From positions 217,987 through 241,986 of the forward strand of contig CAWDJZ010000003.1 in NCBI GenBank assembly GCA_963802765.1: a DNA stretch of 24,000 nt, read 5' to 3'. Within the stretch, counting starts at the first letter, position 1. Every line of letters starts with the position of its first letter. A program made the position numbers and the translations under genes. The notes under the pieces were generated by a model. It saw nothing but the letters and a program-made list of their open reading frames with translations. It made no database searches and was not told where the DNA came from. Source of the DNA: an uncultured Gaiellaceae bacterium (lineage in GTDB: Bacteria > Actinomycetota > Thermoleophilia > Gaiellales > Gaiellaceae). This document shows, piece by piece, positions 1,640 to 24,000 of the stretch.

Positions 1640-4202
<2,563 letters not shown>

Positions 4203-4278
4203 GACGAAACCGGCACAGATTCGCCACAGAGCCGTGTGCACCCTCCGTGACGGCGCGTTTCCCGCGCACGCTCGAGGC

Positions 4279-4848
4279 ATGCCCTCCCTGCCACGTCTCG
4301 CGCCGGCGGGCGCTCGTCTGTCGCCGCGGTCGCCCTTGCTGCTCCTCGCGGTGGCCGGGCGCACGCTGGTCGGGGCCGGCTCGGCCAGCGTCGAGCCGGC
4401 TGGCGCTCGTCCCCGAGCAGTCGGCGGCAGCGCCGAAGCTCGTCGTTCACGTCGCCGGAGCGGTCCGTCGCCCGGGTCTCTACCGGCTCGCCGAGGGCAA
4501 GAGAGTCGCCGACGCGGTCGCCCATGCGGGCGGAGCGACCGCGTCGGCCGACACCGCCGCGATCAACCTCGCCGCCCCGCTCGCCGACGGGATGCAGGTG
4601 CTCGTGCCGCGGCGGGTCACGTCCGGGGCGGACGCGGGTGCCGGCGCCGGCGGGCGGCCGTCCCAGTCTGAGCTCGGCCTCGCTCGACGGAGCTCGATGC
4701 GCTGCCGGGCGTCGGCCCCGTCACGGCCCAGAAGATCGTCGACTACCGGGCCGAGCACGGAGGTTTTCGCTCGGTCGACGACCTCGACGCGATCCCGGGA
4801 ATCGGTCCGGCGAGGATCGAGCAGCTCCGGGACCTGGTCTCGCCGTGA
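4279..4848 (+). CDS. comEA: Competence protein ComEA (DNA receptor; SLBB plus tandem helix-hairpin-helix), 3 or more frameshifts
   Basis: N-terminal hydrophobic segment '[11 protein letters not shown]'. SLBB-like '[49 protein letters not shown]'. HhH pair '[51 protein letters not shown]'. Frame switches lie near 4395, 4655 and 4688. The start codon is a best guess. TGA 4846-4848 overlaps the comEC GTG (GTGA). Confidence 0.72.
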
Positions 4849-7115
4849 TCGAGCGCAGCTGGCCGACGCTGCTCGTTCTTTGCGCCTGCGTCGGGCTTGC
4901 GTCCGCGAACGCCTGGCGGGCACCGGCTCTCGTCGTGGTGGTGATCTCGCTGCGGCGACAGCCGCCGTCGCCTCGGTCCGGGCTGCGCTTGCCTGCGTGC
5001 GCGCTCGCGCTGGCGTTGGTCGGCTGGTGGTGGGGCACCGCGCGTCTCGACGCGCTCGAGCGCAGCGTGCTCGTTGCCCGAGCTGGGACGGTCGGCGCCG
5101 CTCACGGCGGTCGTGACCGGTCCTGTGCGGCGAACGCCGTTCGCGCTTCGTGTTCCCGCGGAGGTGCGCCGATTCGATCGACGCGCGGTGCGGGAGCGCG
5201 TCCTGCTCGAGCTGCCGCTCGGGCGCTCGCCGCCACAGGGTGCCGTTCTCGCCCTCCGTGCAGTCGTCGACAGCTCCCCGCGGTCCCGAAGACGGCTTCG
5301 ACGAACGCGGCTGGCTCGCACGGCGCGGCGTCCACGTCGTTCTTCGCGGTGGCGAATGGCGCGTTGTCGGTCGTCGCGGCGGGATCGGCGGCGTCTCCGA
5401 TCGGCTGCGGGCACACGTCGCGCGCGCCATCGCCGCCTGGCCTCGACGGCGAGCGTCGTGCGGTGCTTGCCGGGATCGTGCTGGGCGAGGACGAAGGGCT
5501 CACCGACGAGCTCCGGGACAGCTTCAAGGCGTCGGGCCTCTACCACCTGTTGGCGGTGTCGGGGCAGAACATCACGTTTCTGGCGCTGGGCGTGCTGGGG
5601 CTCGCGTGGCTGCTCGGGATCTCGCGACTCTCAGCGCGAGCTGCTCGCAATCGTGGCGATCGCCGGCTACGTCCTCGCGGTCGGGTGGCAGCCGTCCGTC
5701 GTCCGGGCAGGGGTGGCCGGCGCGCTCGCGTCGCTGGCATGGCTGGTCGTCGCGGCCGCGAGACCGCTGGCACTTCCTCGCGCTCGGGGCTGCGGTCCTG
5801 CTCGCCTGGACGCCGGCCACGCCTGCTCGAGCCCGGCTTCCAGCTCTCGTTCGCAGCGGTTGGCTCGATCTTCCTCCTGGTGCCGAGGCTCAGGCTCGCG
5901 CTCGAGGGTTACCCGATGCCCGAGCTGGCTGCGCGAGGCGCTCGCGGTCTCCACCGCCTGCGGCGCCGCGACAGCGCCGATCCTCTGGCTCCAGTTCGGC
6001 AGCGTGCCGGTCTACTCGCTGCTCGGAAACGTTCTCGTCACGCTCGCGGTCGGGCCGCTGCTCGGGCTCGCGCTCGCTCGGCTCGCTCGTCGAGCCGGTG
6101 CTCCCGTCCGCGGCGCTCGCGCTCGCCTGGCTGAACGGCTGGCTGGCGGCGTACATCGCCGCCTGCGCGGCCATCGTCGGCGGCCTGCCGCTGGCCCAGA
6201 TCGGCTCCGGCGCGGCCGTGTGCGTGCTGCTCGGCACGCCGCTCGCGCTGCTCGGCCTGCGCCGCCTGCCGCCCTGGCGGCGAGGCGCAGCGCTCGCAGG
6301 CGCGCTGGCGATCGTGCCGGCACTCCTCGCTTGGCAGCTCGTGCCGGCGCAGTCGTTGCCGCCTCCGACCGGGCTGCGGCTCACGTTCCTCGACGTCGGC
6401 CAGGGCGACTCGATTCTCGTGCAGGTTCCGGAAGGGGCCGTGCTCGTCGATCAAGGACCGCCGGAGGGGGACGTCGCGCGGCAGCTGCGAGAGCTCGGGA
6501 TCCGTCGCCTCGCGGCGCTCGTGCTCACGCATCCCCAGCGCGACCACATCGGCGGCGCCGAGGCCGTCCTGCAACGGCTGGGCGTGGAGCGCGTGCTCGA
6601 CCCGCATCTGGCCGCGTCGAGCGAGTACCGGCGAGCGGCGCTCGCGGAGGCGGCGGAGCGGGGCGTGGCCGTCGTCGAGGCCCGGGCGGGCGACTCGTAC
6701 CGGCTCGGGCGGCTCCAGTTGCGCGTGCTCTGGCCGGACCGGCCGGGTACGCCGAGGCCGAGGATCCGAACCGGCTCCCGGTCGTCCTGCACGCGACCTA
6801 CGGCGACACCGACGCCTTGCTGACCGCGGACGCGGAGAACGACGTCACTGCGCGCCTCGTGTCCCGTCGGATCGAGATCCTCAAGGTCGCCCATCACGGC
6901 TCCGCCGATCCGGGTCTCGCAAGCGAACTGGGCGAGCTGCGACCCACCGTCGCGGTGATCTCGTGCGGCCGTGGCAACGACTATGGCCATCCGACAGCGT
7001 CGACGCTCGCGGCGCTGCGGGCGAGCCCGGGCTGAGCCTCTACCGAACCGACGAGGACGGGCGCGTAGTGGTCGAGTCGGACGGGCGCCGGATCTCGGTG
7101 CGGACCGACCGTTGA
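4845..7115 (+). CDS. comEC: DNA internalization competence protein ComEC/Rec2 with C-terminal metallo-beta-lactamase domain, 10 or more frameshifts
   Basis: '[54 protein letters not shown]', '[27 protein letters not shown]' and '[21 protein letters not shown]'. MBL domain '[55 protein letters not shown]', with tail '[27 protein letters not shown]'. The fragments alternate between ORFs 4524, 5074 and 5150. Frame switches lie near 5085, 5270, 5435, 5630, 5755, 5822, 5918, 6075, 6745 and 7030. Confidence 0.85.
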
Positions 7116-7120
7116 GTAGG

Positions 7121-8131
7121 GTGAACGACGTGGCCGGAACCGCCGACCTGAAGCCCGTGTACCTGCTCACCGGCAGCGACAGGCCGAAGATCGAGACCGC
7201 ACTCGCGCGCCTCCGCCGGCACTTCGAGCCGGAGGCCGTCGAACTCGTCTCCGCGCAGGACCTCTCAGGCCCCGAGGCAGCGGCGCTCTGCAATGCGGGC
7301 AGCCTCTTCGGCGATGCCAGACTCGTCGTCGTCGAGGGGATCGACGGCCGGCGGAACGCGGAGGGCCGGCTCGCGAACGGCTGGAAGGCGGCCGACGTGA
7401 AGGCGATCGAGGAGTACCTCTCGTCCCCGGCGCCCACAACCGTGCTCGCCCTCGTCGCCGAGGCGATCAAGAAGGACGCGCCGCTGGCCAAGGCGTGTGC
7501 GAAGGTCGGCGCGATTCTCGCCTACGACGTGCCGAAGCGAAACGTCGCGAGCTGGGTCGCCGAGCGCTTCAAGCAGGCGGGCGGCCGCGCCGAGCCCGAC
7601 GCCTGTGCGGCGCTCGTCCAGCTGGTCGGCGAGGACTTCCACCAGCTGGCGAACGAGATCGACAAGCTCGTGCTCTGGGCCGGCGACGAGCCGATCGGCG
7701 AGCGCGAGGTGGAACTGCTCGTCCCGGCAGTCGCCGACATGCCCACCTTCGCGCTCACCGACGCGTGGGGGCGGCGGGACACCAGTGCGACGCTCGAGGC
7801 GAGCGAGACGATCTTCGAGCGGGAGGGCCGTCCGCGTCGCGACACGGCGCCGCGGATGGCGGGTGCGCTCGGCAACCATCTTGCGCTCGTCCGCCGCTGT
7901 CAGCGTCTTGCCGCCGAAGGCGTCCGTCCACGAGAGGCCGCCTCGACGCTCAAGCGGCACCCTTTCTACGTCGACAAGGTGTTCGCCCAGGCGGCGAACT
8001 TCTCCGAGACCGAGCTCCTTGACGCGGTAGTGCGACTGGCCGCGCTCGACCATGCGCTCAAGGGCGGCAGCAAGCTAGCGCCCGACCTCGAGCTCCAGCG
8101 GGCGCTGGTCGACGTCGGGGCTGAGCCCTAG
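7121..8131 (+). CDS. holA: DNA polymerase III subunit delta
   Basis: Intact reading frame from GTG 7121 (an alternative GTG is at 7130): 'LKPVYLLTGSDRPKIETALARLRRHF..GSLFGDARLVVVEGID..LANEIDKLVLWAG..TFALTDAW..LKGGSKL'. Size (336 aa) and position between comEC and rpsT fit holA. Confidence 0.8.
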   Translation: MNDVAGTADLKPVYLLTGSDRPKIETALARLRRHFEPEAVELVSAQDLSGPEAAALCNAGSLFGDARLVVVEGIDGRRNAEGRLANGWKAADVKAIEEYLSSPAPTTVLALVAEAIKKDAPLAKACAKVGAILAYDVPKRNVASWVAERFKQAGGRAEPDACAALVQLVGEDFHQLANEIDKLVLWAGDEPIGEREVELLVPAVADMPTFALTDAWGRRDTSATLEASETIFEREGRPRRDTAPRMAGALGNHLALVRRCQRLAAEGVRPREAASTLKRHPFYVDKVFAQAANFSETELLDAVVRLAALDHALKGGSKLAPDLELQRALVDVGAEP

Positions 8132-8394
8132 GAGGGCTCGCCGACGGCGAGGCGGGCGGCGCGCGCCTTCTTGCGCGCGGCCGTGTTCTTGTGCAGCGCC
8201 CCGCGGGAGGCGGCCTTGTCGATCGTGCGCACGAGCTCGAGATGCTCTGAAGCGACCTGCTCGGCGTCCTCGCCCGCGACAGCGGCCTCGAGCCGCTTCG
8301 TCAGCGTCTTGACGGTCGAGCGGTAGCGGAGGTTCTCCTCCCGCTGGCGCTCGGCGATCCCGACGCGTTTCTTCTGTTGCTTGATGTTGGCCAT
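8128..8394 (-). CDS. rpsT: 30S ribosomal protein S20
   Basis: 'MANIKQQKKRVGIAERQREENLRYRSTVKTLTKRLEAAV..RTIDKAASRGALHKNTAARKKARAARL', 88 aa. The internal ATG 8394-8392 is preferred over the longer ORF-track start at 8502. Confidence 0.93.
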   Translation of the reverse strand: MANIKQQKKRVGIAERQREENLRYRSTVKTLTKRLEAAVAGEDAEQVASEHLELVRTIDKAASRGALHKNTAARKKARAARLAVGEPS

Positions 8395-8466
8395 ATCGAA
8401 GAAAGGCCCGCACTCGGCGGGCGCGCAGGATCGTAGCAGAGAAGCCGTTCCGGCAGACCTCGTTCC

Positions 8467-8472
8467 TATACT
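8467..8472 (+). promoter_or_regulatory. Candidate -10 hexamer (TATACT) placed for a leaderless murJ transcript
   Basis: TATACT ends 6 nt before the murJ GTG at 8479. There is no Shine-Dalgarno sequence between them. Confidence 0.3.
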
Positions 8473-8478
8473 CGCGCA

Positions 8479-10048
8479 GTGGAGACGCGAGCCCAGCCAC
8501 ACAGGCTCGCGTGGTCGACGGCGCTCTTCTCGGCCGCGACCGGTCTCTCACGCGTGCTCGGCCTCGTCCGGGAGATCGTGGCCGCGAACTACTTCGGCGC
8601 ACGCGGGCCGATCAACGCCTTCACCGTCGCGTTCCAGATCCCGAATCTCATCCGCGCTCTCGTCGCCGACGCGGCGCTCTCCTCCGCGTTCGTGCCCGTC
8701 TTCAGCGAGCTGCTCGAGAAGGGGGAGAAGGCGCGGGCGTGGCGGGTCGCGTCGACGGTCTTCTGGCTCTTCCTGCTCATCGTCGGCGGGATCACCGCCG
8801 CTCTTCATCCTGGCCGCGCCGGTGTTGATGCCGGCGCTCGTGGGCGCCTACGACGACCTCACGGTGACGCTGTCGCAGATCCTCTTCCCGATCGTCGTCC
8901 TGATCGGCCTCTTCGGGATCGTGACCGGGATCCTGAACAGCTACGAGCAGTTCACGATCCCCGCGCTGACGCCGGTCTTCTGGAACCTCGCGATCATCGT
9001 CGGGCTCGTCCTCGGCGTTCCTCGGGCCGACACCGAGGACGGCAAGCTCTACGTCTACGCAGGCGCGATCGTCGTCGGGACGTTGATCCAGTTCCTGCTC
9101 CCGCTCCCCTGGCTGCGCCGCCTGGACGGCCGGCTCGGCCTTGCCCTCGATCTGAAAGACCCGGCCGTGCGGCAGGTCTTCAAGCTGATGGTGCCCGTGA
9201 TGCTCGGGCTCGGCCTGATCAACGTGAACGCGGTGATCGGGACCGTCTTCGCCTCCAAGCTGATCGACCCGGAGCTCGCGCCGAGCGCAATCGACAAGGC
9301 GTTCCGCATCTACATGCTCCCGCAGGGGATGTTCTCGGTCGCGGTCGCGACCGTTCTCTATCCCGTCGCTCGCGCGCCTCGCGACACGAGGCGACCTGGC
9401 CGGCTTCCGGCGACCGTCTCGGCGGGCCTGCGCCAGATCAACTTCCTGCTCGTTCCGGCCGCGCGTCGCCTCCGCCGTCCTCGCGGAGCCGATCGTCCGC
9501 TTGCTCTACCAGCGCGGTGCATTCGAGCCCGACCAGACCCGGTCGTCGCCGCCGCACTCGCTGCGTTCTCGCTCGGCCTCACCTTCAACGGGATGATGCT
9601 GATGCTGAACCGGGGCTTCTTCAGCCTGCAGGCGCCGTGGACGCCGACGGCTGTCGCGCTCGGCTCGTGTTGGTGAACACGGCCCTCTACGGGCTCCTCT
9701 ACCGGGTCGGCACATGGGGGATCCCGCTCGCGATCTCGCTCACGAACATCGCCGGAGTGGCGCTGCTCGTCGTCGCATTGCGCCGGCGCACCGGGACGCT
9801 GGACATGAAGGCGGTGGTGCGTTCGCTCGCGCTCGTCACGCTCGCCTCCGTCGCGCTCGCCCTCGTCTCGTACGGCGTCTGGTGGCTCCTCGACGAGGCG
9901 CTCGGACGGTCGCTGGGAGCACAGGTCGTCTCGCTCGGCGCTCGCGCTCGTCGCAGGGGGAGCCGCCTATCTGCTCGCCTGCCGGGCGCTCCGAGTGCGC
10001 GAGATCACGACGCTACTCTCCCTGCGAGACCGCTTCCGGCGGAGCTGA
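8479..10048 (+). CDS. murJ: Lipid II flippase MurJ (MviN family), about 7 frameshifts
   Basis: '[62 protein letters not shown]', '[38 protein letters not shown]', '[20 protein letters not shown]', '[23 protein letters not shown]', '[29 protein letters not shown]' and tail '[27 protein letters not shown]' (TGA 10046-10048). Frame switches lie near 8805, 9369, 9410, 9465, 9540, 9665 and 9935. Confidence 0.85.
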
Positions 10049-11837: not shown

Positions 11838-11841
<4 letters not shown>

Positions 11842-12644
11842 CGTGGCTTCCCGGCGTCGCTCTCCCGGGCTGCGACCTCGGCGAGCCGCTTGATCGTCGT
11901 CAGCCGTTCGTCCCACTCCTCCGCGACTCGTGCCAGCCAGCGCGTGGCGGCGTCGAGGCGCTCCGCGCGGACGGCGTAGCGCACCTCGCGGCCCTCGCGC
12001 CTGCCTTCGACGAGGCCGGCTCGGTCGAGGACGGCGAGGTGCTTGGCGACCGCCTGTCGCGTCACGGGCAGCTCGGCGGCCAGGGCGGTGGCCGTTGCGT
12101 CGCCGTGGGCCAGGAGAGCGTCGAGGAGGCGGCGCCTGGTTGGGTCCGAGACCGCCGCCCAGAGCTCGTCCACCTCCTCGCGCGCTTCATCGCCTGCCGA
12201 GACGCCGGCCTGCTTCGACGCGTACTCGGCGAGCTCGCCGAGCTCGATCCGCCAGCCCTCCGTGTTCTCCTCGGCGTACTTCGCCTTCTCCGCCTCGGAG
12301 CCGTCGAGCTCGGTGAAGCCGCTCTCGACCACGCGCAGCCGGGTGCTCTCGCCCTCGCCGCTGAGGCTGAACTCGACGAGCGTCGAGTTGCCGGCGCGGG
12401 GCTCGGTGTCTGCCGGGCGTGACCAGCGAAACGCGAAGACATGCGGCGGCTCGACCTTCTCGACGCGCGCACGGAAGGAGCCGTACTCCTCCCACGTGAG
12501 AAGCGCTTCACCGCCGGGTCGCAAGTCGATCGCGGCCGAGTCGCCGAACCACGAACCGACATGCTCGGGCTCGGTCACGACCGCCCACACCACCTCCAGC
12601 GGCGCGTCGATCAGGATCTCACGTTCGATCCGATCCGGAACCAT
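11838..12644 (-). CDS. SRPBCC/AHSA1-like domain fused in one frame to a C-terminal ArsR-family winged-helix regulator
   Basis: ATG 12644 is preceded by AAGGAGG (12656-12650) with a 5-nt spacer. The N-terminal half, '[51 protein letters not shown]', is START/AHSA1-like. The C-terminal half, '[65 protein letters not shown]', is an ArsR-type HTH. The longer ORF-track start at 12941 is rejected. Confidence 0.8.
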
Positions 12645-12662
12645 CTGAACCTCCTTTGTCGT

Positions 12663-12677
12663 GCAACGATTGGTTGC
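12663..12677. promoter_or_regulatory. Operator-like near-palindrome, copy 1 (GCAACGATTGGTTGC)
   Basis: Its reverse complement GCAACCAATCGTTGC matches copy 2 at 14 of 15 positions. It lies 19-33 nt upstream of the ATG of the SRPBCC-ArsR gene, in a locally AT-richer divergent intergenic region. Confidence 0.5.
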
Positions 12678-12692
12678 GCATACTAGCAAAAC

Positions 12693-13897
12693 ATGCAACC
12701 AATGGTTGCTCCTCGTCGACGGGTCGCGCGCAACCCAGGGGTACACTCGACTCCGACCGAGGCACGTCGATCGATCGTTCGAGGGAGAGAGATTCCCGGA
12801 GCGCGCCACCTCTACGTCCACCTGCCCTTCTGCGCTCATCGCTGTGGCTACTGCGACTTCGTCACCGTCACGGGGGCAGAAGGCGAGCACGGCGACTACG
12901 TGGAAGCGCTCCTCGCCGAGCTCGAGGGCTCGAGCGGGCACACCTGGCGGACGAGGTCGAGACCGTCTTCGTCGGCGGCGGCACGCCGACTTTCACCGAG
13001 CCCACCGCGCTCGCGCGGCTGCTCGCCGGCCTTCCCGCGGCGGCCGAGAAGACGGTGGAGGCGAATCCCGAGACGGTGACGCCGGAGCTCGCCGCGCTTC
13101 TGCGCGAGCATGGCGTCGATCGCATCTCGCTCGGCGCGCAGAGCTTCCAGGCGCGCCTGCTCGAAGTGCTCGAGCGGCGAGCGCGGCCGGAGCACGTGCG
13201 CAGTGCGGTCGCCACGCTGCGCGACGCCGGCTTCGACAACGTCTCGCTCGACCTCATCTACGGCATTCCCGGCCAGAGCGCCGACGACCTCGAGCGCGAC
13301 CTCGACGAGGCGCTCGCGCTCGAGCCGGAGCATCTCTCCTGCTACGAGCTCGAGGCCAAACCGGGGACCCGCTTCACGCACGCGTACGGAGCGGAGCTCG
13401 AGCGCCAGGCGGAGGCGATGGAGGACTACTTCGAGCGTGTCGTCGAGGTGCTCACGGGCGCCGGCTACCGCTGGTACGAGACGGCGAACTTCTGCCGCAT
13501 GGACGCCGGGCGCGATCTTCGCGCTCGGCACAACCTGGCCTACTGGCTCGGCCGCGACTATCTCGGCATCGGCATCGGGGCCGTGTCGACCGTCGCGGGC
13601 CTGCGCTGGCGGAACGCACCGAGCCTGCCGCGCTACGTCGCGGCGCTGAGCCGGGGCGACCGACCCGCGCGCGAGCTCGAGCCGCTCGACGACGACGTGC
13701 AGGCGCGCGAGCGGCTGCTCCTCGGCCTCCGGCTCGACGAGCCGCTCGCGAGAGACGGCCTCGACGGCGCCGTCGACAGCGATGCGCTCGCGCGGCTCGT
13801 TCGCGGCGGCCTCGTCGACGCGGCCGGCGACACGCTCGTGCTGACCCGGCGGGGCCGCTTTCTCGGCGGCGCGGTGACTGCGGAGCTCCTCTCGTAG
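12693..13897 (+). CDS. hemW: Radical SAM heme chaperone HemW / HemN-like coproporphyrinogen III oxidase family, 1 frameshift near 12930
   Basis: 'RHLYVHLPFCAHRCGYCDF' (CxxxCxxC) is in the frame of ORF 12693. The rest, 'VETVFVGGGTPTF..TVEANPETVTPE..GVDRISLGAQSF..NVSLDLIYGIPGQS..HLSCYELEAKPGT..RWYETANF..HNLAYW', is in the frame of ORF 12656. The start is uncertain: the only in-frame ATGs (12693, 12702) give a 30-aa N-terminal extension and lie inside the operator-like palindrome. Confidence 0.85.
12695..12709. promoter_or_regulatory. Operator-like perfect palindrome, copy 2 (GCAACCA-A-TGGTTGC)
   Basis: Perfect 7-1-7 inverted repeat, centre-to-centre 32 bp from copy 1. It overlaps both candidate hemW ATGs (12693 and 12702). 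Confidence 0.5.
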
Positions 13898-20067: not shown

Positions 20068-20925
20068 GTGCGCGTGAAACGACTGCTCGCACTCCTGCCG
20101 CTCGTAGTCGTCCTCTGTGCGCTGCTCGTGCTGACGGGCTGCGGCTCCAAGGACGCGCTCACGCTCGATCCGGTCGCGTCCGCTGCGTCGAAGACGACCG
20201 AGGCCGGAAGCTCTCGCGTCGCGTTCGAGACGTCGATGCAGCTCTTCGGCAAGGACGTGTCGTTCACCGCCGACGGCCTTTTCGACTACGGCGACTCGAC
20301 CGGCTCGATGACGCTCGATCTGGGGTCGATGCTGCCGCTCGCGGGCGTCGGCCAGTTCGAGCTTCGCATGGTCGACGAAAAGATCTACATGCGCCTGCCG
20401 TCCCTGATGGGGCTGGGCCTGCCGACCGACAAGGAGTGGGTCTCGCTCGAGCCCGGCAAGGCGCTCGAGGGCGCGGGCTTCGGCGGTCTCGACCCGTCGA
20501 GCATGCAGCAGGATCCCGCCCAGCTGCTCCGCCTGCTGCGCGCCTCCAGCGAGGTGACCGCGGCGGGCACGGCGACGATCCGCGGCGTCGACACGACGCG
20601 CTACACGGCCAAGCTCGACCTCCGGAAGTCGATCGAGGCGAGTGCGGAGGAGCTCGAGCTGACGGCGGAGCAGCGCGCCCTGCTGCGCCAGGCCGCCGAG
20701 CAGCTGGTGGATCAGGTCGAGACCGACACGCTTCCGGTCGAGGTGTACGTCGACGACGACGGCCTCCTACGCAGGCTCGCGCTGGATCTGTCGCTGAGCG
20801 CCGAGGGCCAGCGGCTCTCCATGAAGCAGACGACGGACTTCTACGACTTCGGTGTCGACGTCGACGTGGAGGCTCCGCCTGCCTCGCAGGTCTTCGACGT
20901 GACGAAGCAGCTTCAGTCCGGCTAG
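20068..20925 (+). CDS. Secreted lipoprotein of unknown function (possibly LolA/LprG-like fold)
   Basis: Signal peptide plus lipobox 'LLALLPLVVVLCALLVLTGC|GS'. Intact 285-aa ORF with no catalytic motif recognised. The fold suggestion is only an impression from its strand-rich pattern. Confidence 0.7.
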   Translation: MRVKRLLALLPLVVVLCALLVLTGCGSKDALTLDPVASAASKTTEAGSSRVAFETSMQLFGKDVSFTADGLFDYGDSTGSMTLDLGSMLPLAGVGQFELRMVDEKIYMRLPSLMGLGLPTDKEWVSLEPGKALEGAGFGGLDPSSMQQDPAQLLRLLRASSEVTAAGTATIRGVDTTRYTAKLDLRKSIEASAEELELTAEQRALLRQAAEQLVDQVETDTLPVEVYVDDDGLLRRLALDLSLSAEGQRLSMKQTTDFYDFGVDVDVEAPPASQVFDVTKQLQSG

Positions 20926-23900
20926 TCCGGCAGGGCGAACTCCGCGATCAGGTCGAAGTCGCCTGCGAGCACGCGGTCGATCCGTCCCGTGCGCGCGCCG
21001 GACGCATACCTGACGAGTGGGGAGGGCTCGCGCCGGTAGCGGCGCACGATCACCGCTTCGGCGCCGTCCGTGCTCGCCCAGCCGGGATCGAGCGCGGCGA
21101 CGCTGACGACAACCGTCGCACGGTCGAAGGAGCTCTCGCCGGCCGGCGTCTCCAGGACGTGCATGCCGTTCTCCCCGCGGAGGAGCGTGTAGGCGCCGAG
21201 CCCGACAACCTCGAGTATGCGCGTGTCGTGCCCGTCCGCCTCGCGGATCTGCATCCCTCGCCCGGCTGCCCAGCTGACGTACATCTCGCTGAGCTCCACA
21301 ACGAATGCCGCACAGGCGTTGGCATCGTCGCCGTGCCCGGGTCGGAGCGTGATCCGCGCGTCACTCGGCTCGCCGTCCTCGAGGCCTCTGAGCGCGCCAC
21401 GCAGGACGAGCAGCCGCCGCGACAGCAGCTCGACGAGCTCGCGCGAATGCGTCTCGCGTCCGGACGCGAGCCTTCCGGCGAGCCGTTTGGCGGTCCGGGT
21501 CGCGGCTTCCAGCCGGTCGAGGTACTCGACTCGGGCGAGCACGCCGGTACGTGCGTCCGACTCCCAGAACCCGGGCTCGTGCATCGACCCGAGCGCCTCT
21601 TCCTTCACGCTTCGCCAATGCTGCGACTCGTCGTCCACCGCCTCGAGCTCGGCGCGAAGGAACGCAGCCTCGGCCTGAGAGCCCTGCGGGTCGAGCGCGA
21701 GGGCGGCAAGCGTCAGCGCGCCGTCGGGCGGGGCGACACCGAGCGGCTCATCGGCTGCGTTCGGGTCGACGAAGGTGACCTCGAGACCCGCGCCGGGCCG
21801 CGCCGTGATGAAGAGGAACTGGTCTCCCGCGGGAAACGTGCGCTCGACGATCGCCTCCGCGAGGCGGGTGAGCAGATGCCGTTCGACCGCCCGCTTGAGC
21901 GGCCGCGCGCCGAGCTCGGCGGTGAACCCCTTCTCGATCAGGAAGTCGATCGCCGCCTCGTCCCACTCGACCGCCCACGGCTGCATGCGAAAGCCACGCC
22001 TGCGCAGGACGTCGGTCAGCTCCTTCTCGAGCAGGTCGCGCATCACCCCGCGGCCGAGCGGGCGAAAGACGACGACGCGGTCGAGCCGATTCAGGAACTC
22101 CGGCCGGAACGACCGCTCGACCGACCTGAGCACACCGGAGGCGTCGAATGCCTCCGTCCGTCCGACGAAGCCGACGCCGGGGCCTGTCGGGATCGCAGAG
22201 CCGAGATTCGAGGTGAGGATGATCACGCAATGGCGCAGGTCGACCGTGCGGCCGTTCCGGTCGGTGAGACGGCCGTCGTCGAAGACCTGGAGGAAGATGT
22301 CCCAGATCTGCGGATGCGACTTCTCGAACTCGTCGAGGAGGAGGACCGAGAAGGGCTGCTTGCGGACCTGGGCGATCAGCGGCGCGGCGTGCTTCTCGGT
22401 GGCGGCGTCGCCGAGCAGCCGGTCCAGGCTCTCGGGCGTCTGGTACTCGCTCATGTCGAGGCGGACCAGCCGGTCCTCGGAGCCGAAGACGAAGGCGCTG
22501 AACGCCTTGGCGATCTCCGTCTTGCCGGTGCCGGTCGGGCCGACGAAGAGGAAGACCCCGAGCGGCCGGGTCGGGTCGGTGAGCCCCGCTTTCACGAGCG
22601 CGATTCGCTCCACGAGGCAATCGACCGCTTCGGGCTGCCCGAGTACCCTCGCCTCGAAGAACGCACGGACGCGCTCGAGGCTCAGCGTCGCGCGCGGGTC
22701 GAGCACGTGGAGCGGCAGTCCGGTCGCGTCGCTCAGCGTCGAGATCACCGTCTCCGGCGAGACCTCCGAGGCGACGCCGCGGCGGATTCGGTCGCGCACG
22801 AGCTCGAGCAAGCGCAGCAGGTTCCCGGGGGCCGCCGTGGCGGGCAGATAGTGCGACGCGAGATCGAGCGCTTCGGCGAGCGTGTCGTCGTCCACCTCGA
22901 GCTCGTTCTGTGCCGCCCAGCCGCGTGCCACCTCGAGCGCGTCGGCATCGGAGATCGGCGTCAGGCGCACGACCTCGAAGAGACGCGCGACCCGTGGCCG
23001 CTGCTGGATGACGAGCTCGTACGCGAGCGGGTCGATCTCGCCCACGACGATCGCGTCGCCCGACTCGACGAACGGGAGCAGCGCGTCGAGGACCCCGCGC
23101 GGGCTCTGCATGTGCTGGCCGGACCAGAGTGCCTCCTCGAAGCTCGGGAAGATCCAGGCGATCTTGCGTCCCGCGGTCCGGCGGACGATGTCGTGCACGC
23201 GCTCTTCGAGCATGCCGATGAACGCCTGGCCGGCGTTCACGTCCGCTGCACTCGCCTGAAACGCGAGCCAGCCGCCCTCGAGCCGGCGAACCGCCTCGAG
23301 GATCAGCGACGTCTTGCCCGCCCCGGGGTCGCCGACGAGCAGCACTGAGCGTGGCTGCGGCGAGTCGAGCGCGGCCGCGATCGCGTCGACCGCGATCGCG
23401 CGGGAGCCGACGATCGTCGCCGCGGGGAGTTCGTCCGGCTCGAGCACGCGGCCGAGCTCCTTGAAGAAGGTGACGTCGACGAACGAGCGGCGCCACTCCT
23501 GCATCGCGGGCTCGAACGCGACACGCGTCCGCTCGCTCCCGGCACGGAGGATCTCGTCGACGACGGGTTGCAGGCTCGCCTCGAGCTCGCCGAGCTCTTC
23601 GGCGGTGACGGTCTCGCCGGCCGCGACCCGGGCATCGACGAAGCGGGCGACCTCCTTGATGATCGGGGCATCGCTCCAGTCCTCCTCCGCCGCGCGCAGG
23701 ATCTCGAGCGTGAGACGGCCCTCGCACACTGCGAGCGCGCGCAACAGGAGCTGGCGCTCACCCCACTCGGCGCGTTCGAAGCGGCCGGCCGCCCACTCCG
23801 GCCAGCCACCCGGTGCTCGGCGTCCGGCAGCGATCGCGCCGAGCGCGCCCACGCGCAGGTGCTTGCTCGGCGCGCGCGCCGCGTCGGCGAACGCGCTGTA

Positions 23901-23966
23901 CGGCACGCGATCCTCGCTGCCGAGGAGCTCGACGAGCCGCTCGAAGTCCTCGTCATCGTCGAGCAT
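20922..23966 (-). CDS. ClpA/ClpC-type double AAA+ ATPase with an N-terminal helical domain and a C-terminal class-I release-factor-like module lacking the GGQ domain; frame stays open to the window end at 24000
   Basis: D1 has 'VLLVGDPGAGKTSL' with ClpA/B D1-like context ('AYELVIQQRPRVARLFEVVRLTPIS', 'APGNLLRLLELV'). D2 has 'LGQPEAVDCLVERIALVKAGLTDPTRPLGVFLFVGPTGTGKTEIAKA', 'SVLLLDEFEKSHPQIWDIFLQVFDDGRLTD', 'VIILTSNLGS', 'FRPEFLNRLDRVVVFRPL' and 'GARPLKRAVE'. The C-terminus has 'EPGFWESDAR', 'ARITLRPGHGDDANACAAFVVELSEMYVSWAAGRGM', 'GLGAYTLLRGENGMHVL' and 'VRRYRREPSPLVRYASGARTGRIDRVLAGDFDLI', all RF1/RF2-like. There are no frameshifts in 3 kb. The codons upstream of ATG 23966 (LAERHPWLDAD) contain no stop, so the true start may lie beyond the window. 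Confidence 0.85.
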   Translation of the reverse strand: MLDDDEDFERLVELLGSEDRVPYSAFADAARAPSKHLRVGALGAIAAGRRAPGGWPEWAAGRFERAEWGERQLLLRALAVCEGRLTLEILRAAEEDWSDAPIIKEVARFVDARVAAGETVTAEELGELEASLQPVVDEILRAGSERTRVAFEPAMQEWRRSFVDVTFFKELGRVLEPDELPAATIVGSRAIAVDAIAAALDSPQPRSVLLVGDPGAGKTSLILEAVRRLEGGWLAFQASAADVNAGQAFIGMLEERVHDIVRRTAGRKIAWIFPSFEEALWSGQHMQSPRGVLDALLPFVESGDAIVVGEIDPLAYELVIQQRPRVARLFEVVRLTPISDADALEVARGWAAQNELEVDDDTLAEALDLASHYLPATAAPGNLLRLLELVRDRIRRGVASEVSPETVISTLSDATGLPLHVLDPRATLSLERVRAFFEARVLGQPEAVDCLVERIALVKAGLTDPTRPLGVFLFVGPTGTGKTEIAKAFSAFVFGSEDRLVRLDMSEYQTPESLDRLLGDAATEKHAAPLIAQVRKQPFSVLLLDEFEKSHPQIWDIFLQVFDDGRLTDRNGRTVDLRHCVIILTSNLGSAIPTGPGVGFVGRTEAFDASGVLRSVERSFRPEFLNRLDRVVVFRPLGRGVMRDLLEKELTDVLRRRGFRMQPWAVEWDEAAIDFLIEKGFTAELGARPLKRAVERHLLTRLAEAIVERTFPAGDQFLFITARPGAGLEVTFVDPNAADEPLGVAPPDGALTLAALALDPQGSQAEAAFLRAELEAVDDESQHWRSVKEEALGSMHEPGFWESDARTGVLARVEYLDRLEAATRTAKRLAGRLASGRETHSRELVELLSRRLLVLRGALRGLEDGEPSDARITLRPGHGDDANACAAFVVELSEMYVSWAAGRGMQIREADGHDTRILEVVGLGAYTLLRGENGMHVLETPAGESSFDRATVVVSVAALDPGWASTDGAEAVIVRRYRREPSPLVRYASGARTGRIDRVLAGDFDLIAEFALPD

Positions 23967-24000
23967 GTCCGCGTCGAGCCATGGATGACGCTCGGCGAGC

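Follow-up and report, generated by a model that had tools for sequence, protein, structure and literature searches.

What a bacterium might do with a release factor (RF) that has lost its catalytic domain is the question raised by a gene near the end of a 24,000-nt stretch of contig CAWDJZ010000003.1 (positions 217,987 to 241,986, forward strand) from an uncultured Gaiellaceae bacterium (GenBank assembly GCA_963802765.1). This stretch is referred to here as the window, and all positions are counted within it. A sequence-only reading of the window had described an RF-like module at 20925-21674 that keeps the decoding superdomain and from which the GGQ domain has been excised. The peptides quoted in support were all recovered in the minus-strand translation of this segment, which represents the C-terminal 250 aa of an uninterrupted open reading frame (ORF) at 20922..23966 (minus strand; 1014 codons, hence 1014 aa, from the ATG at 23966). 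The module comprises residues 764-1014 (20925-21677, minus strand) of a protein of at least 1014 aa, and its context is the key to the locus: it is a C-terminal domain that hangs on a flexible tether from a Clp-type ATPase, one of a widespread and unusual family without a name (the gene is called Clp-RF in the following).

The only Pfam family matching the module was PCRF (PF03462; E = 1.2e-7, 32.2 bits against a gathering score of 24), and RF-1, which represents the GGQ domain, gave no match in it. When the module was compared with all PDB sequences by phmmer, RF1 (E = 5.5e-5) and RF2 were the only meaningful matches, and the alignments ended at '..VAAL', that is, at the end of domain 2. A family profile built from 35 members matched RF1 at E ~2e-10 and RF2 at E ~3e-12, the RF2 match covering domains 1 and 2 (residues ~25-219); RF2 is the closest relative by sequence profile and also the best structural match. 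Among NCBIfam families, only the prfA and prfB models matched, without reaching equivalog level (TIGR00019, 19.8 bits against a cut-off of 423; TIGR00020, 19.9 against 370). The AlphaFold2 model of residues 720-1014 (mean predicted local distance difference test score, pLDDT, 89.1; predicted template-modelling score 0.85) consists of a three-helix bundle followed by an alpha/beta domain, with the helices of RF domain 1 at model positions 45-75, 87-115 and 122-144; pLDDT was 55-66 across the first 30 model residues, which form a tether of variable sequence in the family. In a Foldseek comparison of this model with the PDB (best E = 5.8e-10), 50 out of 50 matches with E ≤ 1e-3 were RF1, RF2, mtRF1 or mtRF1a, and the best global superposition was obtained with free, closed RF2 (1gqe; template-modelling score 0.52). 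The similarity to release factors is far beyond chance: the module is derived from RF2 and consists of RF domain 1 and the domain 2/4 superdomain. With RF2 (PrfB) and RF1 (PrfA) it shares the three-helix bundle of domain 1, the beta-sheet superdomain of domains 2 and 4, and the core motifs FW (domain 1), MY..W, E.G.H and (I/V)R.Y ... R.G ... VL.G.(L/F)D (domain 4); both the alignment and the family profile showed that domain 1 is kept with an RF2-like 'P.FW' motif. The parts of the module, from the N- to the C-terminal side, are as follows:

21678..21731, minus strand: variable tether with low model confidence (pLDDT), joining the D2-small domain of the ATPase to the RF-like module, residues 746-763
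21378..21677, minus strand: equivalent of RF domain 1, a three-helix bundle, residues 764-863 (model helices, profile match)
21558-21578, minus strand: RF2-like motif EPGFWES within domain 1
21093..21377, minus strand: equivalent of RF domain 2, residues 864-958 (alignment, model, Foldseek)
21303-21344, minus strand: equivalent of the alpha5 tip, RPGHGDDANACAAF, unconstrained
21252-21287, minus strand: conserved core MY..W
21150-21176, minus strand: conserved core E.G.H
21120-21149, minus strand: loop equivalent to PxT/SPF, TPAGESSFDR, unconstrained
21051..21092, minus strand: residual linker replacing RF domain 3, residues 959-972, including WASTDGAEA (low model confidence)
20925..21050, minus strand: equivalent of RF domain 4, residues 973-1014, VRRYRREPSPLVRYASGARTGRIDRVLAGDFDL, the most constrained part of the module

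That the GGQ domain had been excised between the same two flanks that enclose it in release factors was borne out when the protein was aligned by MAFFT with RF1 and RF2 of E. coli K-12, extracted from its genome. The module has no counterpart to the segment running from 'PE(L/V)..' via GGQ and helix alpha7 up to 'IR(T/S)Y', and it has lost both the switch loop and helix alpha7, by which domain 3 is positioned in release factors. In the window protein, 36 residues lie between the E.G.H strand and the (V/I)R.Y strand, compared with 122-123 in RF1 and RF2. In 155 family members this spacing was 23-65 (mode about 48-54) and domain 3 was kept by none, which means that its loss is family-wide and not a peculiarity of the window sequence. 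What separates the flanks, ATVVVSVAALDPG (residues 950-962; nt 21081-21119) and VIVRRYRRE (beginning at residue 972), is indeed the peptide WASTDGAEA, but it occupies residues 963-971 (nt 21054-21080), and not nt ~21042-21083 as first given. In the model, the replacement of domain 3 is a low-confidence loop of 14 aa; the residual linker of other family members has a median length of 28 aa (range 9-38). The claim that GGQ occurs nowhere in the protein held as well, as neither the window protein nor the first 51 homologues contain the tripeptide, and no GGQ-like loop was found elsewhere in the protein. A cryptic GGQ was considered and rejected: the tripeptide is present in 8 of 192 relatives, each time in a single sequence and at a different, nonhomologous site (e.g., the AAA+ body, the alpha5 tip or the recognition loop). 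Nor does the module contain a Gln that is invariant across the family. The two outcomes named by the sequence-only reading as refuting it, a GGQ-like loop at another place and a deletion confined to this one sequence, were both checked, and neither was observed. Because domain 3 is absent as a whole, and because Pfam RF-1 does not match, the module is predicted to be unable to hydrolyze peptidyl-tRNA, as had been proposed.

The elements by which release factors read stop codons fared no better. Column information content was computed over 67 full-length members. It amounted to ~1 bit per column at the alpha5-tip position ('GTGG(D/T)E' in release factors), and likewise at the PxT/SPF loop and the subsequent 'R.HTS' positions; in the fold core (MY..W, E.G.H and R..V.V) it was ~4 bits. 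Both loops vary in length across the family (3-14 and 4-16 residues, respectively) and in charge, the stacking His of release factors is not conserved, and the basic residues of the RF strand 'HR(V/L).R' become 'HV.E'. In the window protein, LETPAGESSF occupies the position of the RF2 SPF/RF1 PxT tripeptide; here the alignment agreed with the sequence-only reading. As the loops are unconstrained and variable in length, the module is devoid of a conserved apparatus for codon reading, in line with the earlier statement that it does not obviously read stop codons. Constraint is strongest in domain 4, in the segment VRRYR..PSPLVRD..RGWRTGR.DRVL.GDFDL (~4 bits per column), which by alignment is homologous to 'IRSYVLDDSRIKDLRTG...VLDGSLDQF' of RF2. 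Its hairpin is of fixed length (26-27 residues) and rich in Arg, with a median of eight Lys and Arg residues versus four to five in RF1/RF2 and a net charge of ~+5. In PrfH, retained domain-4 residues contact H69 and S12. Thus, besides the missing GGQ domain and reading motifs, the module is distinguished from RF1 and RF2 by a more basic domain-4 hairpin and by its covalent fusion to an AAA+ ATPase.

A deep search returned 638 representative clusters (50% identity) at E ≤ 1e-3, 104 of which remained at E ≤ 1e-30, and in many clusters the protein measures 1050-1230 aa and ends with the module. A genome scan at species level identified 108 relatives, of which 80 loci were kept; these span at least 10 phyla and include Actinomycetota (to which the window belongs, as Gaiellaceae), Acidobacteriota, Planctomycetota, Gammaproteobacteria, Eisenbacteria, Rhodothermales, Verrucomicrobiia, Methylomirabilota, Thermodesulfobacteriota and others. 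The family occurs widely in soil metagenomes, and two of its gammaproteobacterial carriers, Rudaea sp. 3F27F6 and Tahibacter sp. UC22_41, are cultured. In 60 of the 80 loci, a single uninterrupted ORF encodes two Walker A motifs and the tail; the other 20 are accounted for by contig ends, frameshifts in long-read metagenome-assembled genomes (MAGs), or variants with an unrecognised P-loop in the first AAA+ domain (D1). Free-standing copies of the module were also considered, but the short matches on long contigs were frameshift-split genes in long-read assemblies. The ratio of nonsynonymous to synonymous substitution rates (dN/dS) of the module was 0.17 in comparison with locus L010 (a Gaiellaceae MAG with 96% identity) and 0.26 in comparison with L012, versus 0.07-0.09 for the second AAA+ domain (D2); selection on the module is looser, but clearly purifying. 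In databases, members of the family carry no more specific name than 'AAA family ATPase' or 'ClpC'. Full-text literature searches found no published description of a Clp ATPase with an RF tail, and a survey of release factors (Burroughs & Aravind, 2019) mentions neither Clp nor this architecture.

Two observations concern individual members. In the complete genome of Tahibacter sp. UC22_41 (L089:5155-8867), the gene is divided between two frames, its ORFs (5155-6735 and 6597-8867) overlapping, which could reflect a frameshift, a pseudogene or a sequencing error; the ORF of Rudaea sp. 3F27F6 (L072) is intact. Furthermore, the MAG MFD10007.bin.3.89 has one family member on each of two separate contigs (L037 and L038), and both gave the same match (43% identity, E = 8e-51); this pair could stem from gene duplication, strain heterogeneity or an assembly duplicate.

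The body of the protein matched Pfam AAA_2 (E = 8e-41) and ClpB_D2-small (E = 9.6e-14), in addition to P-loop matches in D1, and the NCBIfam equivalogs for ClpA (250.8 bits against a cut-off of 993) and ClpB (276.8 against 1232) matched partially and far below their cut-offs. The reading frame is open up to the window edge, with LAERHPWLDAD encoded upstream of the called Met (23967-24000). In L010 the frame continues for 30 codons to an ATG (MPRRRDKFKDKEIRSLVETLAESHPWLDAD...), for which reason the ATG at 23966 is probably internal; the true start would lie ~30 codons upstream, beyond the window, and the protein would comprise ~1044 aa. The gene and the parts of its ATPase body are as follows:

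20922..24000, minus strand: whole gene, a Clp-type double AAA+ ATPase with RF-like tail (ORF, Pfam, NCBIfam, comparison with L010)
23433..23966, minus strand: family-specific, all-alpha N-terminal domain, residues 1-178 (AlphaFold2 model)
22647..23432, minus strand: AAA+ domain D1, residues 179-440, probably noncatalytic (alignment, motifs)
23310-23333, minus strand: Walker A of D1, GDPGAGKT
23196-23234, minus strand: aromatic pore loop of D1, AGQAFIGMLEERV
23133-23162, minus strand: degenerate Walker B of D1, IAWIFPSFEE
21732..22646, minus strand: AAA+ domain D2 with D2-small, residues 441-745, ATPase motifs intact (Pfam AAA_2, ClpB_D2-small)
22518-22541, minus strand: Walker A of D2
22380..22412, minus strand: pore-1 loop of D2, GDAATEKHAAP, in which the tyrosine of GYVG is lost (variable loop in the family)
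22320-22346, minus strand: Walker B of D2
22206-22214, minus strand: sensor 1 of D2
22161..22178, minus strand: loop GVGFVG following sensor 1, aligned with ClpA IGL 617-619
21888-21911, minus strand: sensor 2 of D2

The status of the ATPase motifs was taken from an alignment in which 67 full-length members were set against ClpB and ClpA of E. coli. In D1, Walker A is present, as is an aromatic pore loop (AGQ.[YF].G.LE.R). Where Walker B would read 'IDELH', members have sequences resembling 'FPSFE' or 'VPDFH', and the Arg-finger position shows no conservation. Judged by these motifs, the D1 ring is probably noncatalytic. In D2, Walker A, Walker B, sensor 1, Arg finger and sensor 2 are all intact, and in place of the pore-1 loop 'GAPPGYVGYEEGG' there is a shorter loop of variable sequence, with an aromatic residue in just 7 of the 67 members. 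The features of the two rings are thus split, the pore loop residing in the degenerate ring, and the motor and the ClpP-type loop in the ring without a pore tyrosine; we know of no Clp/Hsp100 protein with this combination. The ClpP-type loop lies within an insertion after sensor 1 of D2, which carries [ILVM]GF in 60 of the 67 members; in the window protein VGF aligns column for column with IGL (617-619) of ClpA, whereas ClpB is gapped there. LGF-type loops dock Clp unfoldases onto ClpP and serve as a marker separating ClpC from ClpB (PMC10149685). Because of this match to the docking position of ClpA, the ATPase is ClpA/ClpC-like and not ClpB-like, despite ClpB being the best partial match in NCBIfam; the long coiled-coil M-domain of ClpB is also absent, with its columns gapped. 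Features in common with ClpA and ClpC are the pair of AAA+ modules, ClpB_D2-small, a D2 ATPase with intact motifs and, where ClpA has IGL, an (I/L/V)G(F/L) loop. The family differs from them by an unrelated alpha-solenoid in place of Clp_N, a degenerate Walker B and Arg finger in D1, the loss of GYVG in D2, and the RF-like tail of ~270 aa at the C-terminus. ClpI, a noncanonical double-ring Clp paralogue of Actinomycetota that occurs with or without LGF loops, was considered as the identity of the protein and ruled out on motifs and architecture: as described, its ATPase and translocation motifs are intact, it carries an M-domain like that of ClpC and an N-terminal domain of Clp type, and the paper mentions no C-terminal extension or release factor (Jiang & Schmitz, 2023; PMC10149685).

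The N-terminal domain (~178 residues) was modeled as an all-alpha bundle (pLDDT 91.4) without a significant structure match in the PDB (best E = 0.07, with weak ARM/HEAT-like resemblance), and among the Pfam matches listed none, Clp_N included, falls in residues 1-190. Variants of ~870 aa (P0052, P0055, P0105 and P0107; ~865-894 aa, with Walker A of D1 at residues ~55-70) lack this domain and retain D1, D2 and the RF-like tail. The N-terminal domain is therefore an optional accessory, and, by the same comparison, the invariant core of the family is D1-D2-(tether)-RF-like module.

To relate the family to its genomic surroundings, all ORFs of at least 100 aa from the 80 loci were clustered. None of the neighbours was shared across phyla. 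In Gaiellaceae the gene lies between a phoH-ybeY-era block and an hrcA-dnaJ-mtaB-yqeY-lepA block (15 loci), which is synteny restricted to the lineage; a Ser/Thr kinase, an enoyl-CoA hydratase and an M20 peptidase accompany it in 11-17 other loci of Actinomycetota/Thermoleophilia, and more distant members have unrelated surroundings. As no neighbours are shared across phyla, the Era/YbeY/PhoH and HrcA/DnaJ/LepA context is unusable as functional evidence. Control by heat shock was considered and rejected, as neither the window nor L010 contains a CIRCE element. Membership in a defence system was likewise rejected, as PADLOC matches were confined to the AAA+ modules (e.g., DolB at residues 430-590 in D2; short P-loop matches in D1) and the RF-like tail and the N-terminal domain matched nothing. 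No RtcB family was present among the window genes scanned with Pfam.

Several genes elsewhere in the window are broken across frames, in the regions of murJ-lepA (8381-9676/8437-11838), leuS and comEA (1801-5116), and comEC (4524-7035). Positions 2-73 of the MurJ profile match in one frame and positions 74-292 in another, the editing and anticodon-binding domains of LeuRS are in different frames, and the Competence and Lactamase_B parts of ComEC extend across three. This suggests either indel errors of the kind common in long-read MAGs or pseudogenes. The sequence-only reading, which allowed for a sequence error, was reasonably cautious, but the concern does not extend to the Clp-RF ORF or to its domain-3 deletion. 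On the plus strand, a 285-aa ORF (20068-20925) with a lipoprotein-type signal (...LVLTGCGSKD) and no Pfam match converges on the Clp-RF gene, and the 3' ends of the two overlap by 4 nt (20922-20925). The equivalent position in another Gaiellaceae locus (L001; 10784-11614) holds a 276-aa gene without Pfam match, the two being likened by position only. Between lepA and a hemW-like radical-SAM gene, a stop-to-stop ORF (11841-12992, minus strand) with an ArsR/MarR-type helix-turn-helix and an AHSA1/SRPBCC domain lies on the opposite strand and interrupts the otherwise codirectional lepA-hemW-hrcA-dnaJ block.

Which role such a protein could have is best approached from what its tail has retained. 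We tentatively propose, as the likeliest mechanism though at somewhat less than an even chance, that the dead RF2 tail is a targeting anchor, which brings the ATPase to the factor/A site of the ribosome. The RF2-derived, catalytically dead module, carried at the C-terminus of a ClpA/ClpC-type double-ring ATPase on a short flexible tether, would bind the translation-factor/A-site region via domain 1 and the invariant Arg-rich hairpin of domain 4, and binding would deliver an ATP-driven remodeler, possibly coupled to ClpP, to ribosomes (here we infer both the docking to ClpP and the identity of the substrate). The protein would be a single-polypeptide bacterial counterpart of the pairing of a noncatalytic RF paralogue with an ATPase, as in Dom34/Pelota-ABCE1 and Vms1-Cdc48. 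Domains 2 and 4 of release factors bind the decoding centre of the 30S subunit. Domain 1 contacts the L11 stalk and RF3 and is dispensable for release; its retention is therefore hard to explain unless binding to the factor site matters. ArfA can recruit the RF2 superdomain to codon-less A sites of stop-less ribosomes. PrfH (RFH, associated with RtcB2), another RF2-derived paralogue that no longer reads stop codons, has domain 2 re-purposed for rRNA recognition and shows that the RF superdomain can be adapted to recognise a ribosome state. In composition the module is its opposite, PrfH having lost domain 1 and kept GGQ (PMC1586002); moreover, the SPF-position loop is highly conserved in PrfH and unconstrained in the module, and PrfH is a stand-alone protein encoded in an operon with rtcB, whereas the Clp-RF gene has no conserved neighbour in the 80 loci. 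ArfB/ICT1 is also a partial release factor, but the complementary fragment, with the GGQ domain alone and without domains 1, 2 and 4. Catalytically inactive RF paralogues such as Dom34 serve as A-site probes, and the RF-like Vms1 partners with the double-ring AAA+ ATPase Cdc48 (PMC6514570); in these systems, too, an RF-fold protein and an ATPase act on stalled ribosomes, but the analogy is functional only and implies no homology, as the fold is unrelated (aeRF1 superfamily), the polypeptides are separate and Vms1 is catalytic.

Several points weigh against such an anchor. Ribosome binding is something we infer, A-site docking being plausible. The loops that make decoding-centre contacts in RF1, RF2 and PrfH vary in sequence and length here, so that a canonical, specific A-site pose is unsupported; in PrfH the equivalent tip loop is conserved and provides most of the ribosome contacts. 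No translation-related neighbour is conserved across phyla, the Era/YbeY/LepA/DnaJ context being limited to the Gaiellaceae synteny. As the pore tyrosine of D2 and the catalytic Walker B of D1 are lost, it is doubtful that substrates could be threaded processively into ClpP, which leaves the proposed unfolding weak. The tail also exits near the ClpP-docking face, and binding of the ribosome and docking of ClpP might compete sterically. Owing to the unconstrained tip loops, the missing association with translation across phyla and the lack of a D2 pore tyrosine, our confidence in the anchor stays below even. The more specific notion of a machine for ribosome quality control or remodelling is possible but more doubtful; in such a machine, a single-polypeptide analogue of Pelota-ABCE1 or Vms1-Cdc48 evolved from parts of RF2 and ClpA/C, the dead RF2 would recognise at the factor/A site that a ribosome is vacant, stalled, damaged or hibernating, and an ATP-driven Clp hexamer, possibly linked to ClpP, would be coupled to this recognition and extract, degrade or split components bound to the ribosome.

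If the module had no role at the ribosome or on RNA at all, the RF fold would merely be a re-used scaffold for protein-protein contacts or autoregulation, in which the sheet face bared by the loss of domain 3, together with the domain-4 hairpin, binds a client or adaptor or gates the ATPase ring. That the tip loops for ribosome/mRNA contact are unconstrained, that domain 4 and the sheet core bear most of the constraint, and that a conserved translation-related neighbourhood is absent would all fit, and Clp ATPases commonly use accessory domains as receptors for clients or adaptors, as is generally known (roles of N-terminal domains are discussed in PMC10149685). RF domain 1 and the RF2-like motifs are, however, kept across phyla, the conserved hairpin is strongly basic, as is typical of nucleic-acid binding, and no partner gene co-occurs, all of which makes us consider this explanation somewhat unlikely, although it is to be taken seriously. 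The basic hairpin could instead bind RNA away from the A site, recruiting the ATPase to mRNA, tRNA or a nonribosomal ribonucleoprotein. A precedent exists in PrfB3 of plant plastids, an RF2 relative described as having lost both the SPF and the GGQ motif, which binds and stabilises petB mRNA and has a role other than termination (PMC5897788), and both the invariance of the Arg-rich hairpin and the loss of the codon-reading loops are compatible with it. Yet PrfB3 is eukaryotic, plastid-specific and stand-alone, without an ATPase; plain RNA binding does not require domain 1, the element contacting the L11 stalk and RF3, which is nevertheless retained; and neighbours from RNA metabolism are not conserved. 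We regard binding of RNA elsewhere as unlikely.

It is very unlikely that the protein still aids peptide release, the module providing A-site recognition only and the GGQ being supplied in trans (e.g., by an ArfB-like protein) or by a cryptic loop. This would complement the notion, expressed in the sequence-only reading, that the module is the mirror image of ArfB, and would agree with the ability of ArfA to recruit RF2 to stop-less ribosomes; but the family shows neither a conserved Gln nor a GGQ-like motif, a conserved neighbouring gene is missing, Pfam RF-1 does not match, and the switch loop and helix alpha7 are gone. Finally, the module might be a decayed prfB fragment, or an assembly artefact, joined to a Clp gene by chance. 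The window is prone to indels, as seen for murJ, leuS and comEC, and some relatives are split by frameshifts; the ORF, on the other hand, is intact across 1014 codons, the same architecture and deletion recur in hundreds of clusters from at least 10 phyla, dN/dS is 0.17-0.26, and the fold is confidently predicted, which leaves this origin hardly credible. Since the family is large and multi-phylum, the deletion family-wide and selection purifying, these comparisons make a new function much more likely than a decayed prfB, and the sequence-only reading had come to the same view.

To our knowledge, ribosome rescue and quality control in bacteria are explained by tmRNA, ArfA/ArfB, PrfH, RqcH/RqcP, HflX and MutS2-type factors, none of which is an Hsp100/Clp ATPase with an RF-derived targeting domain. 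Even if the tail did not bind ribosomes, the family would represent a natural experiment showing that the scaffold of RF domain 1 and domains 2/4 is stable and selectable without the GGQ domain, as well as a Clp ATPase with an unprecedented division of features between its rings. If the tail does bind ribosomes, the Clp proteolysis/remodelling machinery would be linked directly to the ribosomal factor site, and the family would be the first bacterial case of the 'dead release factor plus ATPase' design found in archaea and eukaryotes.

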